The position numbers and the translations under genes were made by a program. Shown piece after piece: positions 135 to 37,999 of a DNA stretch of 57,074 nucleotides. Numbering within the stretch: the stretch's first letter is position 1; each line of letters starts with the position of its first letter. The notes beneath the pieces are model-generated. The model saw nothing but the letters and a program-made list of their open reading frames with translations. It did not search any database and was not told the origin of the DNA. This DNA is from Asaia bogorensis (GTDB lineage: Bacteria; Pseudomonadota; Alphaproteobacteria; Acetobacterales; Acetobacteraceae): contig CAMDAM010000001.1 in assembly GCA_945888575.1 (NCBI GenBank), forward strand, positions 1-57,074, read 5' to 3'.

Positions 135-223
135 AAGAGAAGTGGTTGCACCCGGACCTTGAAACCGCCGACTTTTATTCGTTTGCGCCTTGGGTACCCG
201 TTCGCACCGATCCGCAAATGGAT

Positions 224-269
224 AAAAGTTTTTTGGTTCTTTTTTTCAAAAAAGAACGCGCTTGCCTCC
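224..269 (+). repeat. AT-rich hairpin repeat, solo unit A (copy 1)
   Basis: AAAAGTTTTTTGGTTCTTTTTTTCAAAAAAGAAC followed by GCGCTTGCCTCC. The 32-nt core (226-257) is identical to five other copies in the window. Confidence 0.9.
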
Positions 270-5343: not shown

Positions 5344-6258
5344 CTACGGAACGCGCGGCGAAACCGGCGTGGCGCCGTCCATCGTGGCGCGCACGAAGGC
5401 ACCGCCATTGACGATGGCGCGGCGCCCGGCGGCCAGCACCGGGTGCATCACGTGCCACACGTGGATCATCTCCGGCCACACCTCCAGCGTGACGGCCACG
5501 TGTGCCGCCCCGGCCAGCGCGGCCAGCCGGGTTGAATCGTCCAGCAGCGTCTCGGCCGCGCCCACCTGGATCAGCAGCGGCGCGAGGCCGGTGAAATCGG
5601 CATGCAGGGGGGAAGCCAGCGGGTTCTTCGGATCCGCCCCGCCCAGATAGGTCTTGGCCATGAACTCCAGCCCGGCCTTCTGCACCGTGGGGTCCTCGGC
5701 GGACTTGGACGTGATCGAGCCGCCGGTGGCCTCCATGTCGATCCAGGGCGAGATGCACCAGCCGCAGGACGGCTGCGGCAGCCCGGCGTCGCGGATCGCC
5801 AGCAGGGCGGACACCACCAGGCCGCCGCCGGCACTGTCGCCGGCCAGCGCGATGTGCGACGGCGCGTAGCCCTGGGCCAGCAGGTAGCGATAGCCGGCCA
5901 CGGCATCCTCCACCGGTGCCGGGAACGGATGCTCCGGCGCCATGCGGTACTCCAGCGCCAGTACGCGCGCCGCCGCCGCCCGGCCCATCTCCGCCACCGC
6001 ATGCCGGTGGCTGTCCAGCGAGCCGATCACGAAGCCGCCGCCGTGGAAATATAGGATCGCGCGGTTGGCCGCGGCGTTCGGCGTGCTGGTCCACTCGGCC
6101 TTCACCCCGGCGGCGGTCACCTGCTCCACCGCTACGTCGTCCGCCAGCTTGTTCGCCAGGCCACGCGCATCGATGCCGCGGCGCATTTCGGCGAGATCCG
6201 CCGCCTTCGGCCGTGCGGCGATGGCGGCGCGCAGGGCGTCGATTTCAGGATTGCTCAT
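5344..6258 (-). CDS. alpha/beta hydrolase, HSL-type esterase/lipase family
   Basis: 304 aa with the HGGGF oxyanion motif and the GDSAGG nucleophile elbow. Confidence 0.85.
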   Translation of the reverse strand: MSNPEIDALRAAIAARPKAADLAEMRRGIDARGLANKLADDVAVEQVTAAGVKAEWTSTPNAAANRAILYFHGGGFVIGSLDSHRHAVAEMGRAAAARVLALEYRMAPEHPFPAPVEDAVAGYRYLLAQGYAPSHIALAGDSAGGGLVVSALLAIRDAGLPQPSCGWCISPWIDMEATGGSITSKSAEDPTVQKAGLEFMAKTYLGGADPKNPLASPLHADFTGLAPLLIQVGAAETLLDDSTRLAALAGAAHVAVTLEVWPEMIHVWHVMHPVLAAGRRAIVNGGAFVRATMDGATPVSPRVP

Positions 6259-6278
6259 GGTTAGTTTCCCCGAGGTTT

Positions 6279-6385
6279 AAGCAAGAATCTTCTTTTTCTG
6301 AAGAAAAAGAAGCAAAAAGACTTTTATCATTTTTCTGTCATAAAAGTTTTTTGGTTCTTTTTTTCAAAAAAGAACGTGCTTCCTT
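6279..6385 (+). repeat. AT-rich twin-hairpin repeat, composite B-spacer-A (copy 2)
   Basis: Unit B core at 6289-6323 (CTTCTTTTTC-TGAA-GAAAAAGAAG hairpin), a 16-nt spacer, and unit A core at 6344-6375. The GCTTCCTT tail overlaps the TAA stop (6384-6386, minus strand) of the amidase gene. Confidence 0.9.
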
Positions 6386-7724
6386 ACTTCAGTGCTGCCT
6401 CCACCGCCGCCGCCACGCGGAACAGTTTGGCATCCCCCATCGTCTCGCCCATCAGCATCAGCCCCACCGGGGCCTCGCCCGGCTGGGTGCAGGGCAGCGA
6501 GATGGCGCAGCGGTCCAGGAAGTTGCCGAAGGCGCAGTTGCGCAGCTGCATCAGGTTCACCCGGGTATAGGCATCGCTGTCCGCCTCCAGCGCTGCGATC
6601 GGCGGCGGCAGCAGCGGGCAGGTGGGCATCACGATGGCATCGAAATCCTGCGTGACGGCATTGGCTCGGGCGCAGATCTCGGCGCGCGCGGAGAGCAGGG
6701 CCACGTAGTCCGCGGCCGCCATGTCCCGCCCCGGCATGATGCGCTTGAGCACCTGGGGGTCGTACCCGGCGGCCTTCGCAGCGATCAGCTCGCGGTGCCA
6801 GGCCCAGGCCTCGGCGGCGGCGAAGGTGCCGCGGGCGTTGGCGCGGGGGATCTCGTCGAATGCTGCCAGCCGGAGGCGCACGATGCGGGCACCGGCGGCC
6901 GAGAGCTTGGACAGCGCGGCCTCGAACGCATTGGCCACCTCGGCATCCATGCCATCCAGCACCGCATTCTCCGGCGCGCCCAGGCGCAGGCCGGCGAGCG
7001 GGGCGGCGGCGAGGTCGGGGATCGGTTCGCCGGCGAACACCGCATCGATCGCGGCACAGCAGGCGACGGAATTGGCCAGCGGCCCGATCGAATCGAGGCT
7101 GGTGGACAGCGGCACCACGCCGGTGATCGGCACGCGGCGGGCGGTGGGCTTGTAGCCGACCACGCCGTTCATCGCCGCCGGAATGCGGCAGGAGCCGCCG
7201 GTATCCGTGCCCAGCGCGCCATAGGCCATGGCATCGGCGATCGACACGCCGGCGCCGGAGGAGGAACCGCCCGGGATGCGGCCCGTCGCGCGGTCCCACG
7301 GGGATTTCGGTGTGCCGTAATGCGGGTTGATGCCCAGGCCGGAGAAGGCGAACTCCGTCATGTTCGTGCGGCCCATGATCACGAACCCGGCCTCCGCGAT
7401 GCGTTGCACTACGGGGGCGTTGGCCGCCTCCGGCGCGGCATCTGCCAGCACGGTGGAGCCGGCGGTGGTGACCTGCCCGGCGATCCCGGCCAGGTCCTTC
7501 ACGCTGAACGGAATGCCCGCGAACGGGCCCAGCGCGCGGCCGGCGCGGCGCAGCAGGTCCATCGCATCGGCGGCGGCGCGGGCGCCGTCGGCATCCACCT
7601 TGATAAAGGCGCGGCTGCCCTCCCCGGCGGGGTCGGCAATGCGGGCGAGGCAGTCCTCCACCAGCTGGCGGGATGTGGTCTTGCCAACGGCAAGGGCGGC
7701 GGAGAGATCGTTCAGGGTGCGCAT
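6384..7724 (-). CDS. amidase (amidase-signature family)
   Basis: Start MRTLNDLSAAL at 7724, internal to track ORF 6384..8039. GGSSSGAG amidase signature and a GatA-like fold pattern. Confidence 0.85.
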   Translation of the reverse strand: MRTLNDLSAALAVGKTTSRQLVEDCLARIADPAGEGSRAFIKVDADGARAAADAMDLLRRAGRALGPFAGIPFSVKDLAGIAGQVTTAGSTVLADAAPEAANAPVVQRIAEAGFVIMGRTNMTEFAFSGLGINPHYGTPKSPWDRATGRIPGGSSSGAGVSIADAMAYGALGTDTGGSCRIPAAMNGVVGYKPTARRVPITGVVPLSTSLDSIGPLANSVACCAAIDAVFAGEPIPDLAAAPLAGLRLGAPENAVLDGMDAEVANAFEAALSKLSAAGARIVRLRLAAFDEIPRANARGTFAAAEAWAWHRELIAAKAAGYDPQVLKRIMPGRDMAAADYVALLSARAEICARANAVTQDFDAIVMPTCPLLPPPIAALEADSDAYTRVNLMQLRNCAFGNFLDRCAISLPCTQPGEAPVGLMLMGETMGDAKLFRVAAAVEAALK

Positions 7725-7817
7725 GGGCGAAGGGTGCAGCGCGAGGCGCGGGCGCGCAAGGTGTTGACGGCGGCGGCCCCCCGATGCCCTGCTGCGGCGA
7801 AACCCAGGAGAGCGACG

Positions 7818-8645
7818 ATGAGCCAGATTCCCGAAAAGCCCGTGCTGCTCACCGGCGCCTCCGGCGGGCTCGGCCGCGTGCTGGCGCGTGGCCTGGGGGC
7901 CCTGGGGTGGAAGCTGGTGCTGACCGATATCGTGCCCTTCCCCGACCCGGTGCCGGCGGGAAGCCGCTTCGTGAAGGCGGACCTGAATGACGGCGTGACG
8001 ATCCTGCGCCTGGCCGAAGGCTGCGGCATGATCCTGCATTTCGGCGGCGTTTCAGTGGAGCGGCCGTTCGAGGAGGTGCTGGGGCCGAACATCCGCGGCC
8101 TCTACCACATCTACGAAGCCGCCCGCCGCGAGGGTGCGCGCGTGCTGTTCGCGAGCAGCAACCACGCCATCGGCTTCCACGAACGCAGCGAGGCGCTGGA
8201 CGACGACTGCCAGCTTCTGCCCGATGGCTATTACGGGCTTTCCAAGGCCTATGGCGAGCTGATGGGGCGGATGTACTGGTTCAAGCACGGGGTGGAGAAC
8301 ATCAACGTGCGGATCGGCAGTTCCTTCCCGGAGCCGATCGACGCGCGGATGCTCTCCACCTGGCTGAGCTACGACGACTTGGTGCGGCTATGCGTGCGGG
8401 CGACGCTGGCGGAACGGGTGGAGAGCTGCGTGATCTGGGGGGCTTCGGCGAACAGCCGGACGTATTGGGGCCGGGATGCGCGGGATACGCTGGGGTGGGC
8501 GCCGGAGGATAGTGCGGATGGGTTTGCGGGGCAGATGGGGGGGAAGGTGACGGGGGATGCGGTGATGGAGCGGTATCAGGGGGGGGCTTACACGGGGATG
8601 GAGTATTCTCGGGAGGGCGGGGTGCCGGGGAAGATGTTTCGCTAG
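7818..8645 (+). CDS. NAD-dependent epimerase/dehydratase (uronate-dehydrogenase-like extended SDR)
   Basis: MSQIPEKPVLLTGASGGLGR Rossmann motif and YGLSK catalytic Y-x3-K. AGGAGA RBS upstream of the ATG at 7818. The N-terminal extension of the track ORF (5916..) is GC shadow. Confidence 0.8.
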   Translation: MSQIPEKPVLLTGASGGLGRVLARGLGALGWKLVLTDIVPFPDPVPAGSRFVKADLNDGVTILRLAEGCGMILHFGGVSVERPFEEVLGPNIRGLYHIYEAARREGARVLFASSNHAIGFHERSEALDDDCQLLPDGYYGLSKAYGELMGRMYWFKHGVENINVRIGSSFPEPIDARMLSTWLSYDDLVRLCVRATLAERVESCVIWGASANSRTYWGRDARDTLGWAPEDSADGFAGQMGGKVTGDAVMERYQGGAYTGMEYSREGGVPGKMFR

Positions 8646-8722
8646 CTAGCACGCTTGACGTTTCCAGCTGGTCGAGCAAACATGATACCGTAATCAAAAT
8701 AAAATAGGAAAGTTCGTCGGCG

Positions 8723-9481
8723 ATGCCTCGAGAACCGAAAACCGTCGATGAGTTGCTTGAAGAGATAACGTGTGAATTGTCGCCAACTGGGCGCGCCGAA
8801 CGCGTGTTGCTGGGAGGATTCACGGGTCTCTATCAGGCCGCAGATAATTGGTGCTGGGCGGCTGCGGCTGCCACGGTTGCGACCTATTATGATCGCGTCA
8901 AGGTTCCCGCAGGAACACCTGTGCCGTCTGTCCCGCGGGCGCAATGCGGCCTGGTCGACGGCGGTTACTGTACCGGTGGACCTGCGTGCGCCAAGCACTT
9001 GGCCGGATATCCGAACTGCAACAGACTTAACGACTACGGTAGAATAGATTTTTCGTGCCATAATCCGGATTTCGACAGACAAGGCTTTCTTAACCGCATG
9101 CTGGCTCGCTTGGGGCGCCTTGAAGTGTCCCTGCCAATGCGGGCATCGCGGAGCCACCACATAACATTGTGGGAAACAGCCCCGGGCACTCAGAAAGTGG
9201 TCCCATCGCGGGATTACATGCTTCAGGCGACGGTGGATGTGGACCAGATCGCACGGCTGTTGAAAGACGGGCGACTTGTGTGCTTCCGATCTAAGCGCGG
9301 TGGGACTCGACACTTCATCATTGTCTACGGCTGCGAAACGTACCCAGATGTGTCGCTGCTTGTATGGGATCCTGCCAAAGGATCGGAGATCATCGAAGCT
9401 GAGCAGTTCCTTCACGAGTTCGGCCCGTTCACCCATATGATTGTAACCCGTGGCGATTGGCAGAAGCAGAATGTCAGTTAA
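8723..9481 (+). CDS. papain-like cysteine peptidase (AvrRpt2/C70- or C39-like), Cys-rich insert
   Basis: 252 aa. Q-x4-NWCWAAAAATV nucleophile motif. A downstream RHFIIVYG His and VWDP Asp lie ~20 residues apart, similar to the Cys-His-Asp spacing of AvrRpt2-type proteases. Five Cys in residues ~75-122 (nine in the whole protein). No signal peptide. Local GC about 47-50%. Confidence 0.65.
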   Translation: MPREPKTVDELLEEITCELSPTGRAERVLLGGFTGLYQAADNWCWAAAAATVATYYDRVKVPAGTPVPSVPRAQCGLVDGGYCTGGPACAKHLAGYPNCNRLNDYGRIDFSCHNPDFDRQGFLNRMLARLGRLEVSLPMRASRSHHITLWETAPGTQKVVPSRDYMLQATVDVDQIARLLKDGRLVCFRSKRGGTRHFIIVYGCETYPDVSLLVWDPAKGSEIIEAEQFLHEFGPFTHMIVTRGDWQKQNVS

Positions 9482-10064
9482 GATATACCCGGAGGATTAT
9501 CCTCCCGAAGCTCTTCAAGCTGCGAAGCGCAAGATAGAGGCGTTGCTGTCCTGGGAGGGGTTGGTTTCTCGGAACCCTGAAGCGGCTACCTTCCTCACAC
9601 TGCCGCACCGCGTTTATTTTTTGCGTTCGCGCGGACTTGCTGGTGTTGGGCCCCTTAGGGCCTCCGTCGACTTCGGTGGCTGGCGCTTTCTTGTCAGCCA
9701 GGAGGCCCAGGCGATTGCCGCTGTCACGACGTGGCAGGGTGATGGCGAATGGCGGGTATCCTCTGTTCGGCCGGGAACCTGGGCATCCGCAACGCGAGCC
9801 GCACTGACCGGGGAAGGTTTGGACGGGGGGCCATATACGCTGGCCTATCTCTGGTGCCGCAGGAAATTTGTGGCAGCCTTGTGGCTGCAAACTGAAAGTG
9901 GACAAGGGGAGAAGGTTATCCCCTTGCCGTATGTTCGCGGACTGACGGCACTGCGCCCAACAACCCCCGACGCATATCTTGAGGCAATGCGTCGCCCTAC
10001 GTCCCACGCTCCGGGTATAGTTGCTGCAGCGCGGGCAGACCGACTCAGCCCGTTAGGTGGATAA
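9471..10064 (+). CDS. hypothetical protein, translationally coupled partner of the cysteine peptidase
   Basis: The ATG at 9471 overlaps the upstream stop by 11 nt (ATGTCAGTTAA); an alternative GTG lies at 9450. 197 aa, with no recognisable motif, signal peptide or TM segment. Confidence 0.55.
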   Translation: MSVKIYPEDYPPEALQAAKRKIEALLSWEGLVSRNPEAATFLTLPHRVYFLRSRGLAGVGPLRASVDFGGWRFLVSQEAQAIAAVTTWQGDGEWRVSSVRPGTWASATRAALTGEGLDGGPYTLAYLWCRRKFVAALWLQTESGQGEKVIPLPYVRGLTALRPTTPDAYLEAMRRPTSHAPGIVAAARADRLSPLGG

Positions 10065-10100
10065 AGAAAGGGCCCATCGGACGGGGTTATCCGATGGGCC
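10061..10100. terminator. hairpin terminator between convergent island genes
   Basis: GGCCCATCGGA-cggggtta-TCCGATGGGCC (11-bp stem, 10071-10100). On the minus strand it is followed by CTTTCTTTAT. A second 9-bp hairpin (10137-10161) sits 7 nt past the PAP2-like stop codon. Confidence 0.6.
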
Positions 10101-10167
10101 AGAGGTGCTTATCAGGCAGTGGGCGACGGATCGAACCCTCCGTCCATCAGGGGGACGGAGGCTCTAT

Positions 10168-11400
10168 CTAATGTCCGCTGCGATCCTTGCTCCGCTGCGA
10201 TAGCGGGGCGTCTCCCTCGGGCAGGCGTGCCCGGTCCGCCTCTTTTGGCGCTGGATAGCTCGCGACCTTCGTGCCGAGGGTCCGCAGGGTCGCTCCGGCC
10301 CTAAGCAACTGATGGGATGGAGACTTTTCATCTGGCAACTTCGCGTCTTCGGCTTTGTCGGGCACATAAACAGGTATGCCATCGCCGTCCTTGTTGCTTA
10401 CCTCCTCCCATTCCTTCCTGGCGCGGTCCAGTATGATGGTAAATGATTTCATACGCAGGAGCACATCCATTACAGTCGGGACAACACTCCAGCTTCCTTC
10501 CTTGTCGGAGGGCCAGTGGACGCCAGCGCGCTCACGATTCACCGGAATCTCCTCCGAGAGAGCCCGCAGAACCTTCGCCATGGCGGGTGCCGCCTCACGC
10601 ACGCAATGTTCGATGAGGTAGGCTTGCAAGGCATGGCCGCTGGGATAGGCCGGATGCGCAGGCGTATCGATCATGGGGGAAATGCCCGGCCAAACCTGTG
10701 CCGGGCGGGGGCGCATGAACTCCGCCTTGAACCGCGCCGCAATCATGCCGGCCACCTGCAGCCCAATCAGCACCAAGCTCCATGTTGCCGGCCTGGTCGC
10801 GGGCGAACAAGCTAGAAGATCAGCATAGTAGGTGGTGAAATCGCCCGCTTGTGCCAGTATCGCACCCTGATGCCGGGGGCCTCGTTCAGTGAGGCGCAGA
10901 TCACGCAAATGCGCCAGTTCCTTCCTCACCGCATCAGGGCTTTGGTCCAGCTTGCCTTTGAGCAGGTCCCGCATCGTATCCCAGGCACAGCGGCCAGTCC
11001 CATCCATCTTGGCAGCTTCAATCGCGAAATCGGTAGCGATCACAGCAGCCTTCAGCAGCGGGTCCCAGCCGTCCTCGGGGAAGGTGGTGTTGACGATCAT
11101 TGGGGCCGAGATAGCGGACTGCCCTGCATGGCGTGGCAGCGCCGCACCGATCAGGGTGGGCCCTCCACGCAGGGAACCGAGCCCACCCGGCACCCAGTAC
11201 CAGCCTTGCGGACGTCCGCCACTCTGACCACCGCTTTGACCACCACTCTGGCCGCCCGATTGCCCGCCGCTCTGGCCGCCATAGGAGGCATCGATCGTAT
11301 CGTCGACCGCATCCCCAATAGCTCCAAGAATCGTATCGGGGAGCCTATCAATCGTCTTTTGTAGTGCTGCGATCGCTTCAATCAGTTTGTCATCAGCCAT
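10168..11400 (-). CDS. PAP2 superfamily protein (acid phosphatase / vanadium-haloperoxidase-like) with N-terminal (GGQS)5 repeat
   Basis: 410 aa carrying the three PAP2 motifs: K-AEFMRP-RP (Kx6RP), PAYPSGHA (PSGH) and NRERAGVHWPSD (Rx5Hx3D). No TM helices or signal peptide are evident. GGGGGGA RBS upstream. Confidence 0.75.
   Translation of the reverse strand: MADDKLIEAIAALQKTIDRLPDTILGAIGDAVDDTIDASYGGQSGGQSGGQSGGQSGGQSGGRPQGWYWVPGGLGSLRGGPTLIGAALPRHAGQSAISAPMIVNTTFPEDGWDPLLKAAVIATDFAIEAAKMDGTGRCAWDTMRDLLKGKLDQSPDAVRKELAHLRDLRLTERGPRHQGAILAQAGDFTTYYADLLACSPATRPATWSLVLIGLQVAGMIAARFKAEFMRPRPAQVWPGISPMIDTPAHPAYPSGHALQAYLIEHCVREAAPAMAKVLRALSEEIPVNRERAGVHWPSDKEGSWSVVPTVMDVLLRMKSFTIILDRARKEWEEVSNKDGDGIPVYVPDKAEDAKLPDEKSPSHQLLRAGATLRTLGTKVASYPAPKEADRARLPEGDAPLSQRSKDRSGH
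11215..11280 (-). repeat. 12-nt in-frame tandem repeat encoding (GGQS)5
   Basis: Five imperfect copies of GGYGGNCARWSN lie inside the PAP2-like CDS. The synonymous differences between copies keep the peptide repeat perfect. Confidence 0.9.
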
Positions 11401-11433
11401 TCATTCCCCCCGCCCTTTCGGGCCATTGAACAT

Positions 11434-13398
11434 TCATTCCGGCAATCCCGCCAGAATCAGATGCCGCCCGTAAGCCTCCCGTCGCCACGCATCACGGAAC
11501 GGGCTGTTCTGGACCACGTCGCGCACGCGCTGGTCCGGTATCTCCCGCATCGCCCGCTCGGCGATCTGGCGGGCCTGTGCCAGGTCCCCGGCCGCCGCCA
11601 GCGAGGCAGCGGTCCAGCGCAGACCCACGCGCAGGTAGGAGGGTTCGGCAATGGCCTTCAGCCCCCATTGGGCCGCGATATCGTATTCACCGGCGGTGTA
11701 GTGGGCCACGCACAGCGTGCTGTAGAAATCGTGCGCGTCGCGGTCGCGAGGTGAAAGCTCCATGGCACGGGTCACGCGCCGGACCGCTTCCTGCGCCTCG
11801 CCGGCATAGGACCAAGTGTAGCTGCTCCACAGCCACATATGCGCCGAGCCGGGCCAAGATTGGTTGCCGCGATCGAACAGCTCCATGGCGCCTTCGATGT
11901 CGCGATGGTGCAAGGCGCGGCGGTGGGCGTGGAACATCAAAGCGCGGCAGTTCTCGGCATCCAGGGCCAAGGCGCGGTTTGCCTCCGCTTCGGTGGCCGC
12001 AACCGCTTGGCGGCGGTCCTGCCGCCACCCCTGGCTGAGCGACAGCGTATGCCAATCGGCCAACAGGGCATGGGCATCGGGATAGTCCGGCTCGGCACGC
12101 ACGATCTCGTCCAGGAGGGTTTTGGCCTGGTCGAAACTCTCTCGTTGCAGAACCTGGAGATGCTCGCGCGCCAGCAGCGCCTTTTCGTAGACGGTGAGGC
12201 TTTCGGGCCGCTTCCCCCGAATGCGCTTCAGCTCCAGCTCCTGCACCCGTGGGGCCAGGGTGTTCACGATCTGCGCCACCAGCCGATCCTGGTCGGCAAA
12301 ATCCAGCGTGGCCGAGGTGTCGTGCGTCCGCGCCCAAACCACCGCGCCGGTGCGGGCATCGGCCAGTTCCGTGGTCAGCCGCAGCACGTCGCCGCGCCGG
12401 CGCATGGACCCGCGCACCACGTAGCGCGCGCCCAGCTCGCGCCCCACCTGGCGCAGGTCAACCTGCGGGTCCCGATAGGTGAGGGAGGAGCCGTGCGAGA
12501 TCACCTGCAGTTCGCGCAGCCCGGCCAGCTGGCACACCGTGTCCACCAGGATGCCGTCGGCGATGTGGCTCGGCACCGCCTCGTCGCCCAGTTGTGCGAA
12601 CGGCAGCACGGCGATCTGCGGTGGCGCACCCACGGGCGTCGGTTCCGTGCGCGGCGGCTCGGGAAGGACAGGGGGATCCATCTCCGCGCGCAGCCGCCGG
12701 GCGATCTCACGCGTCTGCGCACCGGGGTTGATCCCCAGCTCGCGCTTCATCATCTCGGCAATCGCGGCGTAGTGGCGTAGCCCGTCAGCCCGCCGGCCCG
12801 CCGCGCCGCAGGCATCCAGCAGGCGGCAATGGATCTCCTCGCGCAGCGGGTCGATCGCGAACATCCGTTCGGCCGCTTCCAGCGCCGCGGCGGCATCGCC
12901 TGCCGCGGTGCAGAGCTCGCCGATGCGGGCCAGCACCGCCAGCACCTTGCGCTCCAGGTCGGCGCGGCTCGGTACCAGCCAGTCGGCGAAATCCTCCTCC
13001 ACATGCGGGAACCCGGCCAGCAGCGGCCCGGCATAGGCTTGCACCGCCTGGCGCAGCCCAGCGAGATCCTCGGCCAAGGCGTGGCGCTCGAACTCCTCCA
13101 CGTCGGTCGCCACATCCTCGCCCAGCGTCAGCGCCCCATCCTGGGAGACGACAACCTGCCGCCCGCGCAGGGGCCGGCGCAGTGAATAGAGTGCCTCGCG
13201 CAGGCTGCCCTGGATCTGCTTTGGCCCGCTGTTCGGCCACAACAGCTCCGCCACCCGCTCCCGCGCCATCGGCCGGCCACGATCCACCGCCAGCACGGCC
13301 AGCAGGGCGCGCGTTTTGCGGGGCAGCGGCGGGCCCTCCTGGCCGTCCACCCGCAGCCCGAAGCCGCCGAGAAGGTTGAGACGAACGCCTGTCATCAC
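11434..13398 (-). CDS. SARP/BTAD-family transcriptional regulator with TolB-like and TPR domains
   Basis: 654 aa. N-terminal OmpR-type winged helix (LNLLGGFGLRVDG..RKTRALLAVLAV..LWP), then a BTAD region, a TolB-N-like block (IAVLPFAQLGDE...YVVRGSMRRRGDVLRLTTELADARTGAVVW) and C-terminal TPR-like repeats. Confidence 0.8.
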   Translation of the reverse strand: MMTGVRLNLLGGFGLRVDGQEGPPLPRKTRALLAVLAVDRGRPMARERVAELLWPNSGPKQIQGSLREALYSLRRPLRGRQVVVSQDGALTLGEDVATDVEEFERHALAEDLAGLRQAVQAYAGPLLAGFPHVEEDFADWLVPSRADLERKVLAVLARIGELCTAAGDAAAALEAAERMFAIDPLREEIHCRLLDACGAAGRRADGLRHYAAIAEMMKRELGINPGAQTREIARRLRAEMDPPVLPEPPRTEPTPVGAPPQIAVLPFAQLGDEAVPSHIADGILVDTVCQLAGLRELQVISHGSSLTYRDPQVDLRQVGRELGARYVVRGSMRRRGDVLRLTTELADARTGAVVWARTHDTSATLDFADQDRLVAQIVNTLAPRVQELELKRIRGKRPESLTVYEKALLAREHLQVLQRESFDQAKTLLDEIVRAEPDYPDAHALLADWHTLSLSQGWRQDRRQAVAATEAEANRALALDAENCRALMFHAHRRALHHRDIEGAMELFDRGNQSWPGSAHMWLWSSYTWSYAGEAQEAVRRVTRAMELSPRDRDAHDFYSTLCVAHYTAGEYDIAAQWGLKAIAEPSYLRVGLRWTAASLAAAGDLAQARQIAERAMREIPDQRVRDVVQNSPFRDAWRREAYGRHLILAGLPE

Positions 13399-18576: not shown

Positions 18577-19563
18577 ATGACCGGCTCCAACCCACCCGGG
18601 GCCACCGCGTACGGCCCGGCCAAGCTGCCGCTGTTCGAGGTGCGGCTGCCCGCGCCCGACCTCGCGCCCTGGCACGCCGGCAACACCGGCATCCCCGGCT
18701 TCACCAGCTTCGCCGCCGAGGCCCCGGGCCCGCACGTGCTGCTGCTATCCCTGATGCACGGCAACGAATACGCCGGCGCCACCGTGTTGGATCGCATGCT
18801 GCGCGCGAAGCTGCGCCCGCTCTGCGGCCGGCTCACCTACGGCTTCGCCAACCTCGCCGCCTTCGCCGCCTTCGATCCCGCCAACCCCACCGCCTCGCGC
18901 TTCCTGGACGAAGACCTCAACCGCGTCTGGGACCCTGCCCTGCTCGACGGCCCGCGCCACTCCGCCGAACTCGCTCGCGCCCGCGAAATCCGCCCGGCCG
19001 TGGAAGCGGCAGACGTGGTGCTCGACCTGCACTCGATGCTCTGGCCCTCCGATCCGCTGATCCTGTGCGGCGCCGCCGCCCGTGGCCGCGCCCTGGCCCA
19101 GGCCGTTGGCGCCCCCGCGCTTGCCGTGGCCGATCGCGGCCACACCAACGGCCCCCGCCTGATCGACCTGCCGCGCTTCGCCCTGCCCGAGGGCGCCGCC
19201 ACCGCCCTGCTGGTGGAATCCGGACAGCACTGGGACCCCGCCGCGGTGGACATGGCCGCCGCCAGCATCGCCGGCCTGCTGCGCCATCTCGGCCTGCTGC
19301 GCGCCCACCCCACCCTGCCCGCTCCCGCGCCGCAACCGGGCCGCGTCGCCGAAGTCACCCAGGCCGTCACTGCCGCCACCGGCAACTTCGCCTTCGTGCG
19401 CGCCTTCCGCGGCGGCGAAGTCATCCCCCGCCGCAACACGCTGATCGCGCTGGATGGCACCGAGGAAATCCGCACCCCGCACGACGACTGCCTGCTGGTG
19501 ATGCCCAGCCTGCGGCCGAGCCGGGGGCATACGGCGGTTAGGCTGGCTCGGTTCGTGGAGTAA
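18577..19563 (+). CDS. succinylglutamate desuccinylase/aspartoacylase family (M14-like) protein
   Basis: 328 aa with HGNEYAG zinc motif and DLHS. Confidence 0.75.
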   Translation: MTGSNPPGATAYGPAKLPLFEVRLPAPDLAPWHAGNTGIPGFTSFAAEAPGPHVLLLSLMHGNEYAGATVLDRMLRAKLRPLCGRLTYGFANLAAFAAFDPANPTASRFLDEDLNRVWDPALLDGPRHSAELARAREIRPAVEAADVVLDLHSMLWPSDPLILCGAAARGRALAQAVGAPALAVADRGHTNGPRLIDLPRFALPEGAATALLVESGQHWDPAAVDMAAASIAGLLRHLGLLRAHPTLPAPAPQPGRVAEVTQAVTAATGNFAFVRAFRGGEVIPRRNTLIALDGTEEIRTPHDDCLLVMPSLRPSRGHTAVRLARFVE

Positions 19564-19566
19564 AGA

Positions 19567-19695
19567 AAGGAAGCGGTTCTTTTTTGAAAAAAAGAACCAA
19601 AAAACTTTCATTCGTCTGAGGCGGTAAGACCGGGCTTCTCCGCATCAAACGAATGAAGTCTTTTTGCTTCTTTTTCTTCAGAAAAAGAAGGACTT
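19567..19695 (-). repeat. AT-rich twin-hairpin repeat, composite in reverse orientation (copy 3)
   Basis: Reverse complement of unit A (core 19576-19607, tail AAGGAAGC starting 3 nt after the TAA at 19561-19563), a 47-nt spacer, and reverse complement of unit B (19656-19690) ending at the stop of the convergent crotonase gene. Confidence 0.9.
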
Positions 19696-20494
19696 ATCTA
19701 CCCTTCCACTGCGCCGGGCGCTTCTCCATGAACGCCGTGCGCCCTTCGCGGTAATCCTCGCTGTCGAAGCAGGCCAGGATCGCCGCATCCACCGCCGCAC
19801 GATCGCGCTGGCTCTCACCGGCCATCGCAGCGTTCACCGTCAGCTTGGTCGCGCGCAAGGATAGCGGCGCGTTGGCCGAGATGGTCTTGGCCAGAGCCAG
19901 CACCGTGTCGGTCAGGTCCTCGTCCGGCACCACCTTGTTCACCAGCCCCACGCGCTGCGCCTCGGCCGCGTCGAACCGCTCACCGGTCATGATGATCATC
20001 CGCGCATGGGCCTGGCCCACCAGCGAGATCAACCGCTCCACCATCTCGAAGCTGTAGGCGATGCCCAGCTTCGCCGCCGGAATGCCGAACTGCGCGCCCT
20101 CGCCGGCAATCCGCAGATCGGCCTGCATGGCGATGCCCAGCCCGCCGCCCAGGCAGAAGCCGCGGATGCACGCGATCACCGGCTTCGGAAACGCCGCCAG
20201 CCGCGCCCGCCCGGCCCCGGTCAGCCGGTCGTATTCCAGCTGCGCATTGCCGTCGGCGCGGGTGGACTCGAACTGGCTGATATCGGCGCCGGAGACGAAC
20301 GCCTTGGTCCCGGCCCCGGTCATCACCACGGTGCGGATCGCCTCATCCGCCTCGAACGCGTCCAGGATCTCCGACAGCCCATGCCACATCGCCACCGACA
20401 TGGCGTTGCGCTTCTCCGGCTGGTTGAAGGTGATCAGCCCAACGCCCTCCGAAACCTCGGCGAGCATCTTTCCGTCGGCATACTGCGTGGTCAT
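19694..20494 (-). CDS. enoyl-CoA hydratase/isomerase (crotonase) family protein
   Basis: Start MTTQYADGK at 20494. Crotonase pattern FVSGADI ... CIRGFCLGGGLGIAMQADLRIA. Confidence 0.85.
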   Translation of the reverse strand: MTTQYADGKMLAEVSEGVGLITFNQPEKRNAMSVAMWHGLSEILDAFEADEAIRTVVMTGAGTKAFVSGADISQFESTRADGNAQLEYDRLTGAGRARLAAFPKPVIACIRGFCLGGGLGIAMQADLRIAGEGAQFGIPAAKLGIAYSFEMVERLISLVGQAHARMIIMTGERFDAAEAQRVGLVNKVVPDEDLTDTVLALAKTISANAPLSLRATKLTVNAAMAGESQRDRAAVDAAILACFDSEDYREGRTAFMEKRPAQWKGR

Positions 20495-21771: not shown

Positions 21772-22410
21772 ATGGACGACGCCGATCTCGCCCTGATCAT
21801 CGCGCTGGACTGCTCCGCCAGCGTCTCGCTGGAGAGCTTCGGCCGCATGGCCAGCGGCTGTGCGGCGGGCATGCGCGACGAAGCCGTGATCGCCGGCCTG
21901 CTCTCCGGCCCGCGCGGCGCCAGCCTCTGCGCCCTCATGATCTGGTCCGGCCCCACTGCGCAGGAAGTGATGACGGGCTGGACCCGCCTCGCCAGCCCCG
22001 AAGCCCTGCACGCCTTCGCCGAGGAGGTGGAGAACGTCCCCCGCACCATCCGCGCCGGGGCCACCGCGGTGGGCGAGGCCCTGCGCGCCTGCGAAACCCT
22101 GATCCTCGCCGCCCCCGCCGGCGCCACCCGCGTGGTGATCGACATGGTCGGCGACGGCAAATCCAACCAGGGCATCCTGCCCCACGTCCCGCGCGACCGC
22201 CTCGTGGCCGGCGGCGTCACCATCAACGGCCTGTGCGTATTGCACGAGGAGCCGGACCTGCTGGCGCACTACCAACAGGAGGTGATCGGCGGCCCCGGCG
22301 CCTTCGCCATGACCTGCCAGAACTTCGCCGAGTTCGAGGAAGCGATGCGCCAGAAGCTGCGGCGCGAGATCATCGCATCGCTAGGCAAGAAAGAGTCTTC
22401 TTTTTTCTGA
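21772..22410 (+). CDS. DUF1194 (vWA-like) domain protein
   Basis: 212 aa with LALIIALDCSASVS, VIDMVGDGKSNQG, INGLCV and VIGGPGAF blocks typical of DUF1194. The last ~8 codons and the TGA stop lie inside repeat unit B. Confidence 0.7.
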   Translation: MDDADLALIIALDCSASVSLESFGRMASGCAAGMRDEAVIAGLLSGPRGASLCALMIWSGPTAQEVMTGWTRLASPEALHAFAEEVENVPRTIRAGATAVGEALRACETLILAAPAGATRVVIDMVGDGKSNQGILPHVPRDRLVAGGVTINGLCVLHEEPDLLAHYQQEVIGGPGAFAMTCQNFAEFEEAMRQKLRREIIASLGKKESSFF

Positions 22411-22526
22411 AGAAAAAAGAAGCAAAAAAGACTTCATTCGCTTGCACGCGTGCTGGTCGCCCTGCACGCGTGCCAGTGAACAAAAGTTTTTTGGTTCTTT
22501 TTTTCAAAAAAGAACCGCTTTCTTCC
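22387..22526 (+). repeat. AT-rich twin-hairpin repeat, composite B-spacer-A (copy 4)
   Basis: Unit B at 22397-22434 has one extra T and one extra A in opposite stem arms, so the stem is 11 bp. The 46-nt spacer holds two copies of TGCACGCGTGC. Unit A core is at 22484-22515, and its tail abuts the stop (22526-22528) of the SBP gene. Confidence 0.9.
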
Positions 22527-24112
22527 TATGCGCTCCGCTTCACATTCCAGAACACCGGCAGCCCGGTCAGCACGCCTTCCAGGTTGCTTCGATGGGCACT
22601 CTGCGCCCGCACCTGGCCCAGCGGGATATAGGGCACATCGCGGAACGCCTGCAGCTGCAGCGCCTCGCACACTTTCTGCTGCGCGGCGAGGTCCGGGGCC
22701 AGCAGCCATTCGGCCCGCAGCGCCTCGATCGTGGGGCTCACCGGCCAGCCCATGATGCCCTGGCGCCCGTTGCCGCGCAGGAAGGCGTGCACGGCCGGGT
22801 TGAACTGGTCCACCCCGCCCCAGGAGGTGTGGAACACGCTCCAGCCGCCCTGGTCCACCGGCTCCTGCTTGGTGCGGCGCTGCACCACGGTGGCCCAGTC
22901 CATCGCCTGCGCCTCCACATTGAGGCCGATGCGCTTGAACAGGTCGAAGGTCACCTCGGCGATCGCCTTGGTGGAGGGAATGTCCTGCGGCGCCAGCAGC
23001 ACCACCTTCTCGCCCTTGTAGCCGGCCTCGGCCAGCAGGCGCTTCACGTTCTCCAGGTTGCGCGGGGCATTGAGGTTCTCCATGCCCGCCTGGGTGTCCA
23101 TCGGCGTATCCGGGCAGAAGTAGCCCACGCCCTCGCGCCACAGCGCCTTGTCCTCGCCCTGGATGGCAATCATGTAGTCGCTCTGCGTCACGGCCTGCAC
23201 GATGGCGCGGCGGATCGCCGGGTTGTCGAAGGGCGGCTGCAGCTGGTTGAAGCGCATCGTGGCGATGGTCCCGGTCGGGATCATGGTGAACAGCCGCACG
23301 TTGCGCGAACGCTGCAGCACCGGCCGCAGGTCGGCCGTCGGCCCGCCCCACCAGTCGATCTCGCCCTGGATCAGCCCGTTCGCCACCGCTGAGACATCGG
23401 GGATGACCGACCATTCCACCCGGTCGAAATGCACCACCTTGCCACCGGCGGTGCGCTCGGCCGCCTCGTTGCGCGGCACGTAGCCCTCGAACTTCTCGTA
23501 CACCACGCGGCTGCCCGGCACGCGCTCATCCGCCTTGAAGCGGAACGGGCCGGAACCGACCATCTCCGTGATCTGCCTGGATGGGTCCGTCTCCGCCAAC
23601 CGCGCCGGCATGATCGGCAGCATGTTGGGCGAATAATGCCCCAGCGCATCCGGCAGCAGCGGGAACGGGTTCTTCAAACGGAACACGATGGTGCGGTCAT
23701 CCTGCGCCACCACTTCGTTGGTGGCCGCCATCAGCGCCTGGCCGAAGCTGTCGCGCTTGCCCCAGCGCTGGATGCTGGCCACGCAGTCCTTTGCGAGCAC
23801 CTTCTCCCCGTCATGGAACTTCAGCCCCTCGCGCAGGGTGATCTTCCAGGTCTTGCCGTCATCCTCCATCACATGGCCCTCGGCCATCTGCGGGCGGATG
23901 CGATACTGGTCGTCCTGCCCATACAGGCTGTCGAACACCATGAACCCGTGATCGCGGGTCTGGTAGCTGGTGGTGATCACCGGGTCGATCACCGCCAGAT
24001 CCGCATCCGGCACGAACTTCAGCACGCGCCTGTTTTGCGCCTGCACGATCTTCGGGGCAGCAAGGGCCGCGCCCGCGGTTGCGAGTCCGCCGAGAACCTG
24101 ACGCCGCTTCAT
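22526..24112 (-). CDS. ABC transporter substrate-binding protein, family 5 (peptide/opine/nickel type), Tat-like signal
   Basis: Start [26 protein letters not shown] at 24112. DppA/OppA-like body. No permease or ATPase genes are adjacent. Confidence 0.8.
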
Positions 24113-25550: not shown

Positions 25551-26144
25551 TCAGGAGGCACGGCGCGCCCGCAAGGCCGCCGCCAGCGTCCCGTCATCCA
25601 GCACATCGAGCGCGCCGCCCATCGGCACGCCCTGCGCCACGCGCGTCACTGCAACGCCGGTCGGCCGCAGCCGCTCGGTCAGCCAATGGCTCGTGGTGGC
25701 GCCATCTACGGTGGCCGCCAGGGCCAGGATCACCTCCTGCACCCCACCCGCCTCCACCCGCGCCAACAGCGGCGCGATGTTGAGGTCCTCCGGCCCGATA
25801 CCCGCCAGCGGCGACAGCGTTCCGCCAAGCACGTGATAGATACCGCGATGCACATGCGCGCGCTCCAGCGCCCACAGATCGCCCACGCTCTCCACCACGC
25901 ACACCACGCCGCGATCACGATGCGGGTCCGTGCACACCTGACAGGGATCGGTGCTGTCCAGGTTGCCGCACACGGAACACGCCCGCACCGAACGCGCAGC
26001 GTCCTGCATCGCCTGGGCCAGCGGCAGCAGCCGCGTCTCCGGCTCCTGCAACAGCTTCAACGCGGTGCGTCTAGCACTGCGCGGGCCGAGGCCGGGCAGG
26101 CGGGAGAGCAGCGCGATCAGGCGGTCGATCTCGGGGCCACCCAT
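25551..26144 (-). CDS. recR: recombination protein RecR
   Basis: 197 aa. LPGLGPRSARR helix-hairpin-helix, C4 zinc finger CSVCGN..CQVC, Toprim region. Confidence 0.95.
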   Translation of the reverse strand: MGGPEIDRLIALLSRLPGLGPRSARRTALKLLQEPETRLLPLAQAMQDAARSVRACSVCGNLDSTDPCQVCTDPHRDRGVVCVVESVGDLWALERAHVHRGIYHVLGGTLSPLAGIGPEDLNIAPLLARVEAGGVQEVILALAATVDGATTSHWLTERLRPTGVAVTRVAQGVPMGGALDVLDDGTLAAALRARRAS

Positions 26145-26146
26145 CT

Positions 26147-26278
26147 AAGCAAGACTCTTCTTTTTCTGAAGAAAAAGAAGCAAAAAGACTTTTGTTCGTT
26201 CGCCGGCCACAGAGACCGTATGCAAAGTCCCAAAAGTTTTTTGGTTCTTTTTTTCAAAAAAGAACATGCTTCCTTGCC
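26147..26278 (+). repeat. AT-rich twin-hairpin repeat, composite B-spacer-A (copy 5)
   Basis: Unit B core at 26157-26191, a 38-nt spacer, unit A core at 26234-26265. It fills the whole ybaB-recR intergenic gap. Confidence 0.9.
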
Positions 26279-26605
26279 TTAGAACGGCAGCTTCATCCCC
26301 GGCGGAATCGGCAACCCCGCCGTCAGCTTCTGCATCTCGTCCTGGCTGTTGGCTTCCACCTTGCGCTTGGCATCGTTATGCGCCGCCAGCACCAGGTCCT
26401 GCAGCATCTCGGCATCGCCGCCTTCGCCCACCAGCTTGGGGTCGATCAGGATCGAGCGCATCTCGCCCTTCCCGTTCAGCGTCACCTGCACCATGCCGGC
26501 GCCGGCCTGGCCCTGGATTTCCAGAGCCGAGAGCTTTGCCTGCATCTCCTCCATCTTCTGCTGCATCTGGGAGGCCTGCTTGAGCATGCCGGCGAGGTTC
26601 TTCAT
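26279..26605 (-). CDS. ybaB: YbaB/EbfC family nucleoid-associated protein
   Basis: 108 aa, [22 protein letters not shown]..., in the conserved position between dnaX and recR. Confidence 0.95.
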
Positions 26606-28476: not shown

Positions 28477-28531
28477 GCGCGGCGCCGATGATTGCTGCCG
28501 AAGGCAGGGGCCCAAGGCGGGGGGAGAGGGT

Positions 28532-28628
28532 GGGAGGCCGAACAAACGACCCGAGCGGAAACTCGTTGCGGCTGCTTCCTTCCGGACCTGACCGGGTTGG
28601 CGAGGCGCCCGTCCGCCGCCGACCTCCC
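28532..28628 (-). ncRNA. ffs: signal recognition particle RNA (small bacterial SRP / 4.5S type)
   Basis: The minus strand reads GGGAGGUCG...GGUCAGGUCCGGAAGGAAGCAGCC...CGGCCUCCC. It contains the universal domain IV motif, and the 9-bp terminal helix closes a ~97-nt hairpin. ffs upstream of dnaX is a common arrangement. Confidence 0.85.
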
Positions 28629-28678: not shown

Positions 28679-29677
28679 CTAGCCCCCGGTCACGCTCATA
28701 TGCCGCGCCACGGCCGGGCGGTCATGGCGGCGGTCGATGATGAAGTCGTGCCCCTTCGGCTTGCGCGCGATCGCGGCCACGATGGCGGCATCCAGTTCGT
28801 CGTCCGTGGCGCCGGCCCGCAGCACACGGCGGAAATCGGCGGAATCGTCCTGGCCCAGGCACATGTACAGCGTGCCGGTGCAGGTCAGGCGCACGCGGTT
28901 GCAGCTTTCGCAGAAATTGTGGGTCATCGGCGTGATGAAGCCGATGCGCGCCCCGGTCTGCGCCACGGTGTAGTACCGCGCGGGACCGCCGGTCTGGTAG
29001 TCGGTGTCCTCCAGCGTCCAGGTCTTGCGCAAGCGGGCGCGCACCATGGACAGCGGCAGGTACTGGTCGGTGCGATCGCCGTCGATGTCGCCCATCGGCA
29101 TGGTCTCGATCAGGCAGAGATCGAACCCGTGCTCGCCGCACCAGGCCACCATCGCATCCAGCTCGTCCTCGTTGGTGCCCTTCAGCGCCACCGCGTTGAT
29201 CTTGATCGCCAGCCCCGCCGCCTTGGCCGCGAAGATGCCATCCAGCGTCTTCTCGATCTTGCCCCAGCGGGTGATGGCGGCGAATTTCTCGGGGTTCAGC
29301 GTGTCCAGGCTCACATTGATGCGCCGCACGCCCGCCTGGGCCAGCCCCTCGGCATGCTTCACCAGCTGGCTGCCGTTGGTGGTGACCGTCAGCTCCTCCA
29401 GCCCGCCATGCCCCTTGGCCCCCAGCCGGGCGCCCAGGTTCTGGAACAGCGTCATCACATCCCGGCGCACCAACGGTTCGCCGCCGGTGATGCGGATCTT
29501 GGTGGTGCCGAGGCGAATGAACGCGGCGCACAGCCTGTCCAGCTCCTCCAGCGACAGGATCTCCGCCTTCGGCAGGAAGGTCATGTCCTCGGCCATGCAG
29601 TACACGCAGCGAAGGTCGCAGCGGTCCGTGACGGAAACCCGCAGATAGGTGATGGGCCGGCCGAAGGGGTCGATCAT
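28679..29677 (-). CDS. moaA: GTP 3',8-cyclase (molybdenum cofactor biosynthesis protein A)
   Basis: Radical-SAM CDLRCVYC motif and C-terminal [13 protein letters not shown] cluster. ATG at 29677, with an alternative GTG at 29701. Confidence 0.9.
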
Positions 29678-29764
29678 GGCGGAAGCCTCGGGGCTATACA
29701 CGGCTGGATATAGCGCAATGTCGTCTCCCGGGGCACCCAGTGCAAGGGGACCCTCGCACGCCCG

Positions 29765-37780: not shown

Positions 37781-37952
37781 CGGTGAATATGCCTAACGCA
37801 ACACCGGTGGGCAAGGAAAAAGTTAGTTTGGAATAGAACTTTGTTAGAAGGGGCGACTCTTGCGTGGGCGGCGGAGAGTTGGCGGGTCCGCTGCGCGACC
37901 CGCCCTACTTGGGGGGCACCCGCGCCTTCCGAGAGGCGCGGGTGCAGGACAG

Positions 37953-37999
37953 GAAAGTTTTTTGGTTCTTTTTTTCAAAAAAGAACCGCTTCCTTCGCC
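37953..37999 (+). repeat. AT-rich hairpin repeat, solo unit A (copy 6)
   Basis: Core at 37955-37986 is identical to the other copies. The tail CGCTTCCTTCGCC ends at the TGA (38000-38002, minus strand) of qor. Confidence 0.9.

Follow-up and report, generated by a model that had tools for sequence, protein, structure and literature searches.

In the first 57,074 nt of the Asaia bogorensis contig CAMDAM010000001.1 (hereafter the window; 68.8% GC overall), six loci carry an A/T-rich palindromic repeat element of 110–145 bp. The element fills gene borders that are empty in relatives, has entered one border independently in different genomes and is present as identical copies in a prophage. This points to an inserted, copy-pasted element of the kind formed by doublets of repetitive extragenic palindromic sequences (REPs; the doublets are known as REPINs), miniature inverted-repeat transposable elements (MITEs) and enterobacterial repetitive intergenic consensus (ERIC) sequences. 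We put a probability of roughly 60% on the reading, drawn from sequence comparison, that it is non-autonomous copy-and-paste palindromic DNA of this class, specific to the Acetobacteraceae and close Rhodospirillales, with a mobile unit of about 120 bp, or 130–145 bp counting its tails.

Each of the six loci carries a unit that we call A. Its 32-nt core was found six times without a mismatch, at 226, 6344, 19576 (reverse strand), 22484, 26234 and 37955, and dinucleotide-preserving shuffles of the window gave an expectation of 0 matches. The 35-nt core of a second unit, B, is exact at 6289, 19656 (reverse strand) and 26157, and a fourth copy at 22397–22434 departs from it by three additional bases, a T and an A in the stem and an A in the head. 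Both sets of positions had been named in the original prediction, which was made from the letters of the window alone, and both were confirmed. The same is true of its statement that these modules are A/T-rich in GC-rich surroundings, the GC content being 22% for the A core, 29% for the B core and 24–40% for the composites of the window. Alignment of A with the reverse complement of B gave 39 identities and four one-base gaps over 45/49 nt, again as predicted; unit B is an inverted, slightly different twin of unit A. The claim that the A core is always followed by nnGCTTCCTT proved too strict, since the tails vary: the A tails of the window are GCTTCCTT at four loci only, GCTTTCTT and GCTTGCCT, with the general form GCTT(C/T/G)C(T/C)T.

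The anatomy of the element was examined in a survey set made up of the window and 119 fetched genome loci (~0.88 Mb; fetched stretches are designated L plus a number). This set contains 312 units, 174 of A type and 138 of B type, with hairpins of 22–26 nt. Pairs with their tails outward number 78, of which 70 combine A with B, and the hairpin-to-hairpin spacing peaks at 68–72 nt. The 69 clean composites, from many genomes, follow one plan: a purine tail (AAGN)n, the B hairpin, CAAAAAGACTTTT, a variable GC hairpin forming a centre of 30–60 nt, AAAAGTTTTTTG, the A hairpin and a pyrimidine tail (CTTN)n. The A hairpin is a perfect A/T palindrome closed by G-C (GTTC-T6-7..A6-7-GAAC), the B hairpin a perfect A/T palindrome closed by C-G (CTTC-T4-6..A4-6-GAAG), and the heads of the units, read as A and B, are AAAAGTTTTTTG and AAAAGTCTTTTTG, respectively. 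Each hairpin joins the inner stem via its A/T-run head. In most subfamilies the outer tails comprise two to four CTTN tetranucleotides per hairpin; one subfamily has no (CTTN)n tail, and there the mobile unit stops at the feet of the hairpins (L194). The centre is an imperfect hairpin with a variable, fast-changing loop, and its outer stem falls into lineage-specific classes, e.g., ..CTGTCGCG..CGCGACAG.. or ..ATYCGTTTG..CAAACGRAT... The whole element is thus a long imperfect palindrome predicted to fold as a rod or a four-way structure, with fold z-scores of -2.8 to -8.8. The composites are non-coding, shorter than 300 bp and bounded by inverted ends of ~45–60 bp, that is, by the terminal inverted repeats that characterize MITEs.

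In L011, L015, L037, L062, L068, L077 and L094, A and B hairpins stand back to back, 0–15 nt apart, with heads outward and no tails, indicating that neighbouring elements abut or form tandem arrays, like clusters of bacterial interspersed mosaic elements (BIMEs). A GANTC site, the CcrM methylation motif of Alphaproteobacteria, was observed at the junction of the B tail and the B hairpin (..GA-N-TC-TTC..) in three of the four B units of the window (6285–6289, 22393–22397 and 26153–26157) and elsewhere in the same subfamily; other subfamilies have GGCCTTC or GCGCTTC.

The six loci of the window are as follows.

Locus 1, 170..267, forward strand: truncated composite with a B-head remnant (GACTTTT), a central stem (ATTCGTTTGCG...CGCAAATGGAT), the A head, the A hairpin (236–257) and the tail GCGCTTGCCT. 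It lacks the B hairpin, the B-head remnant and central stem running from ~170. The element lies upstream of an MMPL-like open reading frame (ORF) starting near 262–310 and faces this gene start, with no adjoining stop.

Locus 2, 6278..6386, forward strand: composite between same-strand (tandem) genes, with B tail TAAGCAAGAAT (6278–6288), B hairpin (6289–6312), B head (6313–6325), a degenerate short spacer (6326–6341), A head (6342–6353), A hairpin (6354–6375) and A tail GTGCTTCCTT (6376–6385). The neighbours are an amidase gene (6384–8039, reverse strand), whose stop (TTA, 6384–6386) is overlapped by the A tail, and an Abhydrolase_3 gene (5344–6258, reverse strand).

Locus 3, 19564..19693, reverse strand: composite between convergent genes, with A tail (19564–19575), A hairpin (19576–19597), A head, a strong central hairpin, B head and B hairpin (19667–19690). 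The stop of an AstE/AspA-like gene lies on the A side (19561–19563); on the B side there is no tail, and the stop of an enoyl-CoA hydratase gene (19694–19696) is 3 nt off the hairpin.

Locus 4, 22383..22525, forward strand: composite between convergent genes, with B tail AGGCAAGAAAGAGT, B hairpin (22397–22422, a variant with 6T/6A), a central hairpin of about -30 kcal/mol, A hairpin (22494–22515) and A tail CGCTTTCTTC. The A tail abuts the stop of an SBP_bac_5 gene (CTA, 22526–22528). A DUF1194 ORF (21772–22410) ends inside B, so that the element encodes its last residues, GKKESSFF, and the TGA of the loop is its stop.

Locus 5, 26146..26278, forward strand: composite inside the dnaX-ybaB-recR gene string, with B tail TAAGCAAGACT (26146–26156), B hairpin (26157–26180), a weak central hairpin, A hairpin (26244–26265) and A tail ATGCTTCCTTGCC. 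The B tail is 1 nt from the recR ATG at 26144, and the A tail abuts the ybaB stop (TTA, 26279–26281).

Locus 6, 37953..37999, forward strand: A unit without a recognisable B, with head (37953–37964), hairpin (37965–37986) and tail CGCTTCCTTCGCC, which abuts the stop of a zinc-type dehydrogenase gene (TCA, 38000–38002).

Judging by sequence, the stretch to the left of locus 6 (37808–37952) may be a decayed left half with a nested GC-rich palindrome at 37881. This small palindrome, GGCGGGTC-N8-GACCCGCC followed by CTAC, occupies 37881–37904 of the window and recurs at L090:372, where it is nested in the long spacer of a composite. It may represent another small repeat family that inserts into the A/B element.

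Comparison of orthologous gene borders revealed filled and empty sites. The ybaB-recR junction (locus 5) is filled in the window, in L120 (RecR 98% identical), in L185 (a 7.3-kb contig with DNA 94% identical to the window) and in L122 (RecR 90%). It is empty in L123 (RecR 85%; TTC TAG CGCC GTG GGC) and lacks the element in ~45 further relatives, which have gaps of 0–30 nt or unrelated repeats. Such unrelated repeats were seen in the gap of L121, L127, L138, L144 and L149; for instance, L121 has four TTTTGTGTCATGG units, and both L127 and L138 have repeats of the TGATCAGTG type. On these sequences the junction appears as a recurrent landing place for small repeats. The convergent gap between the AstE and enoyl-CoA hydratase genes (locus 3), filled in the window, consists of 30 nt and is empty in L181. 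In L180 it is filled in the opposite orientation, and the hydratase stop TAG there arises from a TA to which the hairpin contributes its first G.

At locus 4, the 3' end of the DUF1194 gene is empty in L179, L181 and L183, where the stop of this gene overlaps that of MoaA (CTAA/CTAG). The window, L184 and L185 have an element-encoded ..GKKESSFF and stop in place of the last ~7 DUF1194 residues (consensus ..IIAARQRGRLA); L182 carries a decayed copy after an intact stop, and L180 a lone B hairpin encoding ..RKTFFV and stop. Given that DUF1194 of the empty relatives is nearer to that of the window (87–88%) than the L180 protein is (82%), these copies represent independent insertions at one spot. 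Gene order also differs here: DUF1194 is convergent and overlapping with MoaA in L179, L181 and L183; in the window and L185 about 6 kb lie between them (SBP_bac_5, DAO oxidoreductase, recR, ybaB, dnaX and the signal recognition particle (SRP) RNA), MoaA being at 28679–29701 in the window. The element stands at one breakpoint of this synteny break, which may reflect a repeat-mediated rearrangement.

Recent copying is illustrated by L194 (IMGVR_UViG_2784746772_000002), which contains the late operon of a myovirus-like prophage. Three composites are found there, at 5525–5643, 9085–9203 and 11079–11197, located between terminase and portal, between scaffold and major head, and upstream of the tail sheath gene. 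Copies 1 and 3 are identical over ~120 nt, from CGTTC to GAAG, and differ from the first base outside; they have unrelated flanks, no tails and no duplication of any length. These findings show a recent copy-paste event with a minimal mobile unit that extends from hairpin to hairpin, and the missing duplication argues against a duplicating (DDE-type) mechanism. Together with the filled and empty sites, they bear out the view of the original prediction that the B-spacer-A composites are inverted-repeat, MITE- or REPIN-like insertions.

The A/T hairpins would most likely be the recognition sites of a putative trans-acting enzyme. Since target duplication is missing and the ends are hairpins, a single-strand route of the HUH type, or one resembling that of the REP-associated tyrosine transposases (RAYTs), is favoured over a DDE transposase. 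Integron attC, dif/Xer, IHF and CtrA sites were rejected as candidates, since by eye their core motifs did not match the element.

The centre of the element resembles a terminator. With the central hairpin defined to include the UUUU:AAAA and C:G pairs of the heads, and with thresholds of dG <= -8 kcal/mol and at least 5 U in the 8 nt directly after, terminator criteria apply in 128 of the 135 composite-by-direction cases (95%), with a median dG of -19.3 kcal/mol. The U-rich heads are AAAAGUUUUUUGG and AAAAGUCUUUUUG in the two directions, the U-rich tract after the central hairpin being UUUUUUGGUUCUUUUUUU in one and UCUUUUUGCUUCUUUUUCUU in the other, and U-runs of this kind are otherwise rare in these genomes. 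The predicted fold of the centre thus has the textbook anatomy of a bidirectional intrinsic terminator. On transcription in either direction, the RNA would offer an A-tract, a stable hairpin and a U-rich tract, and could act as a leaky two-way terminator and/or protect 3' ends. Protection or processing of 3' ends has been reported for REP, ERIC and Correia elements, and the folds suggest that the present element probably serves as a leaky two-way terminator and/or a 3'-end-protecting or processing structure.

Moreover, the ends are far better conserved than the centre. At sites shared with genomes whose flanks are 79–84% identical, A, B and the heads are unchanged, and the centre diverges with indels. 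The comparison with L185 gave the same picture: the A and B units and heads show no change at two sites, A shows two changes at a third, and the centres differ at ~7 and ~14 of ~47 positions and still fold. The hairpins also change symmetrically. The lengths of the T-run and A-run of B co-vary (5/5 in 59 units, 4/4 in 14 and 6/6 in 10, with few unequal), the loop-closing pair of B switches from C-G (CTGAAG) to G-C (GTGAAC), and the two tails of one element resemble each other more than tails of different elements do (6.23 vs. 5.34 +/- 0.23 of 12 positions). Hairpin symmetry is therefore actively kept. As termination needs neither complements of the U-tracts nor a fixed sequence, the best explanation for the A/T palindromes is that a conserved protein recognises them. 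This protein could be a transposase-like enzyme (the possibility we prefer) or a host factor that binds DNA. Re-insertion or gene conversion, as forms of turnover, probably add to the identity of the ends. The original prediction had ascribed the identical cores to selection or very recent spread; recent copying is seen, and the conservation is wider than this, the same 23–45 nt modules occurring across a bacterial family.

Several results weigh against a purely mobile, copy-and-paste element. No transposase, RAYT or other candidate enzyme was seen in the window, between unit pairs or beside the elements (~1.5 Mb of related DNA), so that the cognate enzyme which the original prediction proposed to look for did not emerge; Pfam searches of the window genes flanking the elements returned metabolic genes only. 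The identity of A and B at shared sites appears to exceed that of a neutral selfish remnant and points to host-level selection, gene conversion or re-insertion. As many as 64% of the sites lie between same-strand genes, including ybaB-recR, which has no spare bases, and terminase-portal-capsid in a prophage. An efficient terminator inside such a string would be polar, and any termination must therefore be partial. Two window cases had suggested that central hairpins are weaker in operons than between convergent genes, and in a larger set no difference was found (p = 0.28). Apart from this, a parent transposon was sought between unit pairs 0.4–4 kb apart and none was seen, the enclosed genes being ordinary (ABC-F, ParE, AmpD and others).

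The strongest alternative, which we regard as possible rather than probable, is that the element is first of all a host-selected cis element, namely a bidirectional terminator of modular build, or a structure stabilising mRNA 3' ends, providing U-tracts that are otherwise lacking at 69% GC, its mobility being incidental. Purifying selection would then lie behind the family-wide identity of the A/T modules. The high proportion of terminator-like centres favours this explanation, as do A and B modules that stay unchanged at shared sites despite 16–21% divergence of the flanks, and paired indels that keep the hairpins symmetric. So does gene context, because convergent gaps are filled exactly, and the 116 element sites (74 tandem, 32 convergent and 10 divergent) show somewhat enriched convergent and under-used divergent (promoter-side) gaps when set against 421 background pairs (268, 85 and 68, respectively). 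However, a host terminator gives no reason why each U-tract should be followed by its own complement, or why the sequence, and not just the structure, should be fixed across genera. In addition, the majority of copies are found within probable operons, a phage late operon among them, the strength of the hairpin does not vary with context, and the same sites were filled independently and in both orientations.

A further reading, that of a domesticated, self-spreading terminator cassette, seems doubtful to us. Here one conserved protein of the Acetobacteraceae would bind the two A/T hairpins in single-stranded or cruciform form and keep hundreds of copies identical from genus to genus, the host would rely on these copies for two-way termination or the formation of 3' ends because a GC-rich genome is poor in U-tracts, and prophages would serve as vehicles between hosts. 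If true, this would be a symbiosis like that of REPINs and RAYTs with an assigned cellular function.

We then return to the copy-and-paste element and its relation to stop codons. The original prediction listed stops at 6384, 19563, 22526, 26279 and 38000, in one orientation relative to the element. All five are real ends of ORFs with coding-type GC content at third codon positions, and they lie 0–3 nt from the 10-nt A tail or overlap it. Across the 119 loci and many genomes the proximity to stops held, and the strict lock did not: of 147 A tails, 90 have a convergent stop as their neighbour and 57 a gene start, and some genes end inside the element. Nor is there a fixed orientation, as in tandem gene pairs the unit next to the upstream stop is A in as many cases as it is B (16:16). 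Since the tails point outward at both ends, the common orientation noted in the window is largely geometry.

On the stop side, the distance from hairpin to stop is 2–19 nt in 73 of 138 cases (both ends), with peaks at 7–8, 11–12 and 15–16 nt that correspond to the 4-nt period of the tail. Stop usage is altered near the element: stops within 20 nt of a hairpin are TAA in 43, TAG in 33 and TGA in 32 cases, compared to 74, 151 and 289 elsewhere (p = 5e-10), a 2.8-fold rise of TAA. A G comes directly after TAA in 35 of these 43 cases, and AG after 14 of the TGA stops, indicating that stop and tail are fused, with the AAG in register. Where the tail faces a gene start, it finishes directly before the ribosome-binding site. 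Proximity to stop codons is thus statistically real at both ends, with no strict lock.

In our reading, copies either insert only where gene borders leave a few bases free, or persist only there. As seen from the gene, the purine tail, (T)AAG or (TG)AAG, readily regenerates or supplies a stop, which explains why stops appear fused to the tail. Small deletions would then close the gap left between stop and tail. One pair from the window and L185 illustrates such a change, with GCA-TAG-GAAGAAAG in one genome and GCC-T-GAAGAAAG in the other, where a 2-nt loss brought the stop onto the tail. The element may also have a genuine preference for certain targets, either TA or a purine-rich post-stop sequence, and the repeated insertion at the same sites hints at one.

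This preference for TA is central to a further explanation, that of a classical MITE of a DDE transposon which targets and duplicates TA, as do IS630/Tc1-mariner or some IS5-group elements (IS, insertion sequence); in a high-GC genome, TA occurs mostly in TAA and TAG stops, and such targeting would account for the link with stop codons. A TA borders the tail on its outer side in 45% of the A and 35% of the B units, compared to a background of 12%, and in 36% of start-side tails. All four composites of the window are flanked by TA...TA, the empty sites nearest to filled ones contain CTAG or CTAA, and TGA is depleted next to elements, as TAA is enriched. We nevertheless consider this explanation improbable, since the identical L194 copies lack TA or any duplication at their borders, TGA still makes up 30% of adjacent stops, and the two ends of an element carry TA independently of each other (27/15/23/12, odds ratio 0.94). 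L122 moreover has no TA at its recR-side end, and no IS with matching ends was seen among the unit pairs 0.4–4 kb apart.

It is more improbable still that the A/T palindromes are arrays of binding or cleavage sites for a host factor acting on DNA, either an AT-seeking nucleoid-associated protein or gyrase, as proposed for REP/BIME, with easily extruded cruciforms at gene ends helping to manage supercoiling. Such a role would account for perfect 10-bp A/T dyads in GC-rich DNA with a sequence conserved across the family, for the maintained symmetry, for equal use of both orientations to transcription and for sites at gene 3' ends. It leaves unexplained the conserved heads, the inner stem, the heterotypic pairing of A with B, the fixed spacing and the copy-paste behaviour. 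We find it hardly credible that the element is a family-specific DNA uptake signal like the DNA uptake sequences (DUS) and uptake signal sequences (USS) of Neisseriaceae and Pasteurellaceae, which are family-wide and often form terminators as inverted pairs, since, despite similar family-wide conservation, abundance and inverted pairs at gene ends, the conserved module of at least 45 nt goes far beyond known uptake signals, the density is ~1 per 10 kb in the window compared to ~1 per kb for DUS/USS, and the whole 120-nt unit is copied as a block. To our knowledge, sequence-specific DNA uptake has not been described in Acetobacteraceae.

To return to the mobile element, its distribution was assessed by a contig scan of one genome per species with an exact 23-nt query from unit A (GGTTCTTTTTTTCAAAAAAGAAC), which gave at least 119 stretches. 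Among the matches listed, almost all belong to Acetobacteraceae or to metagenome-assembled genomes labelled 'Rhodospirillales', and named carriers are Gluconacetobacter liquefaciens, G. tumulicola and Roseomonas sp. GC11. Bases beyond the query are conserved too (aaaAGTTTTTT upstream and nGCTTSCTT downstream). A BLAST search of plasmids returned only two plasmids of Pseudoroseomonas cervicalis plus short chance matches; in one of the two, NZ_CP115853.1, the element fills a 130-nt gap between two convergent coding sequences annotated by PGAP. A BLAST search of cultured phages gave nothing relevant. The 23-nt query was also found, as an exact match, in 37 IMG/VR viral contigs, and phages could therefore carry the element between hosts.

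As to whether the repeat belongs to a named family, a point raised in the original prediction, Rfam gave no relevant match: over the whole window only the SRP RNA reaches the gathering score, and at E <= 10 locus 3 has only sub-threshold chance matches. No description of the element was found in literature searches with the sequence string or with Acetobacteraceae, Gluconobacter, Gluconacetobacter and Roseomonas in combination with REP, MITE, palindromic and terminator. REPs of the CGTC type were reported to be missing from Acetobacteraceae (Di Nocera et al. 2013, PMC3733652). As far as found, the element is absent from published descriptions and, judging by its sequence, would represent a new family among the short, mobile palindromic repeats of intergenic regions.

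Other features of the window were observed apart from the element. The bacterial small SRP RNA (28530–28627, reverse strand; 58.5 bits) lies directly upstream of dnaX-ybaB-recR, and its 3' end overlaps the longest dnaX ORF by ~16 nt, suggesting that the true dnaX start is probably further downstream. A stretch at ~8500–11500 has a lower GC content (54–63% vs. 69%) and ORFs with weak matches to C70/C39-type peptidases and PAP2, and adjoins a BTAD/TPR regulator gene (11434–13398, reverse strand). This stretch may be acquired DNA.

If our reading holds, the element is an undescribed repeat of the Acetobacteraceae, a family including industrial acetic-acid bacteria and Roseomonas-type opportunists. 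Its sharp, family-wide ends and its insertion polymorphism make it a tractable case for the question, familiar from REP and ERIC sequences, of how palindromic repeats keep their identity for so long. It matters for annotation, as it rewrites protein C-termini (DUF1194 ...GKKESSFF and stop), supplies or shifts stops and probably marks transcript ends. The insertion polymorphism could be used for strain typing, and one copy stands at a synteny break. If it terminates transcription both ways, the element would offer a compact, ready part for synthetic biology in acetic-acid bacteria.

When compared with known systems, the element shares with bidirectional terminators and paired DUS/USS the succession of A-tract, GC hairpin and T-tract on both strands and the location between convergent genes, and it, too, would be a repeat with a second role as terminator. 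It differs in being a copied block of 120–145 bp with additional A/T hairpins and tails that lies mostly in same-strand strings. Subterminal palindromes at both ends without target duplication are also found in HUH transposons (IS200/IS605, the derived palindrome-associated transposable elements (PATEs), and IS91), but no Y1 or Y2 transposase of the IS200/IS605 or IS91 kind was seen here in the DNA described above. The target and cleavage tetranucleotides of IS91 are CTTG, GTTC and CTCG, with T at position 2 (PMC13181058). They recall the GTTC/CTTC feet and the CTTG/CTTC tail repeats, which is a resemblance only, as the element has CTTN 3' of both inverted-copy ends, whereas IS91 has distinct oriIS and terIS. 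The geometry does not fit IS91-like targeting of CTTG/GTTC, which serves as a lead only.

The element is similar to Correia/NEMIS of Neisseria, RUP, Nezha, Coxiella MITEs and the Rickettsia palindromic elements (RPE) in its size class (100–160 bp), non-coding nature, terminal inverted repeats, position at gene borders and presumable co-transcription. Like Correia elements it often has TA at its borders, and like the Coxiella and Rickettsia elements, which can alter ORF ends (PMC5896051), it alters the ends of ORFs. In contrast to Correia elements and other MITEs, there is no consistent TA duplication (none in the L194 copies, and border TA is not coupled), the ends are perfect palindromes and no parent IS is known.

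ERIC sequences, or intergenic repeat units (IRUs), are imperfect palindromes of ~127 bp that are intergenic, transcribed, present in either orientation, conserved across the genera of one family and polymorphic in insertion, with no known transposase. The present element is likewise an imperfect palindrome of ~125 bp in intergenic, presumably transcribed regions, conserved family-wide and polymorphic between relatives. It differs from ERIC by an unrelated taxon and sequence, A/T-richness, two self-palindromic end modules, a terminator-like core and tetranucleotide tails.

REP/BIME sequences and REPIN doublets are also short palindromes at gene ends in hundreds of copies, built from two inverted, slightly different units (A and B here, Y and Z REPs there); a doublet folds as one long hairpin, shows no target duplication and persists throughout a lineage. 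As in REPs, extragenic palindromes of 22–26 nt occur repeatedly (six sites in the 57-kb window) and as inverted doublets that fold as one hairpin, and the roles proposed for REPs, namely termination, mRNA stabilisation and gyrase binding, overlap with those considered here. However, REPs are usually GC-rich, and the hairpins of the element consist almost wholly of A/T although the genome has 69% GC; its feet carry (C)GTTC/CTTC and not a GTAG or CGTC tag; one sequence of 23–45 nt is common to several genera; and no RAYT gene was seen with it in the ~1.5 Mb of related DNA. Given that it has neither the REP tag nor the target duplication of MITEs, we file it as a new family of short palindromic intergenic mobile repeats. 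It is widespread, real and apparently undescribed, and not a new kind of system. Its uncommon traits among such repeats are A/T hairpins although the host is GC-rich, two ends that are each self-palindromic yet not identical, tetranucleotide tails fused to stops, the shape of a two-way terminator and the presence in prophage late operons.

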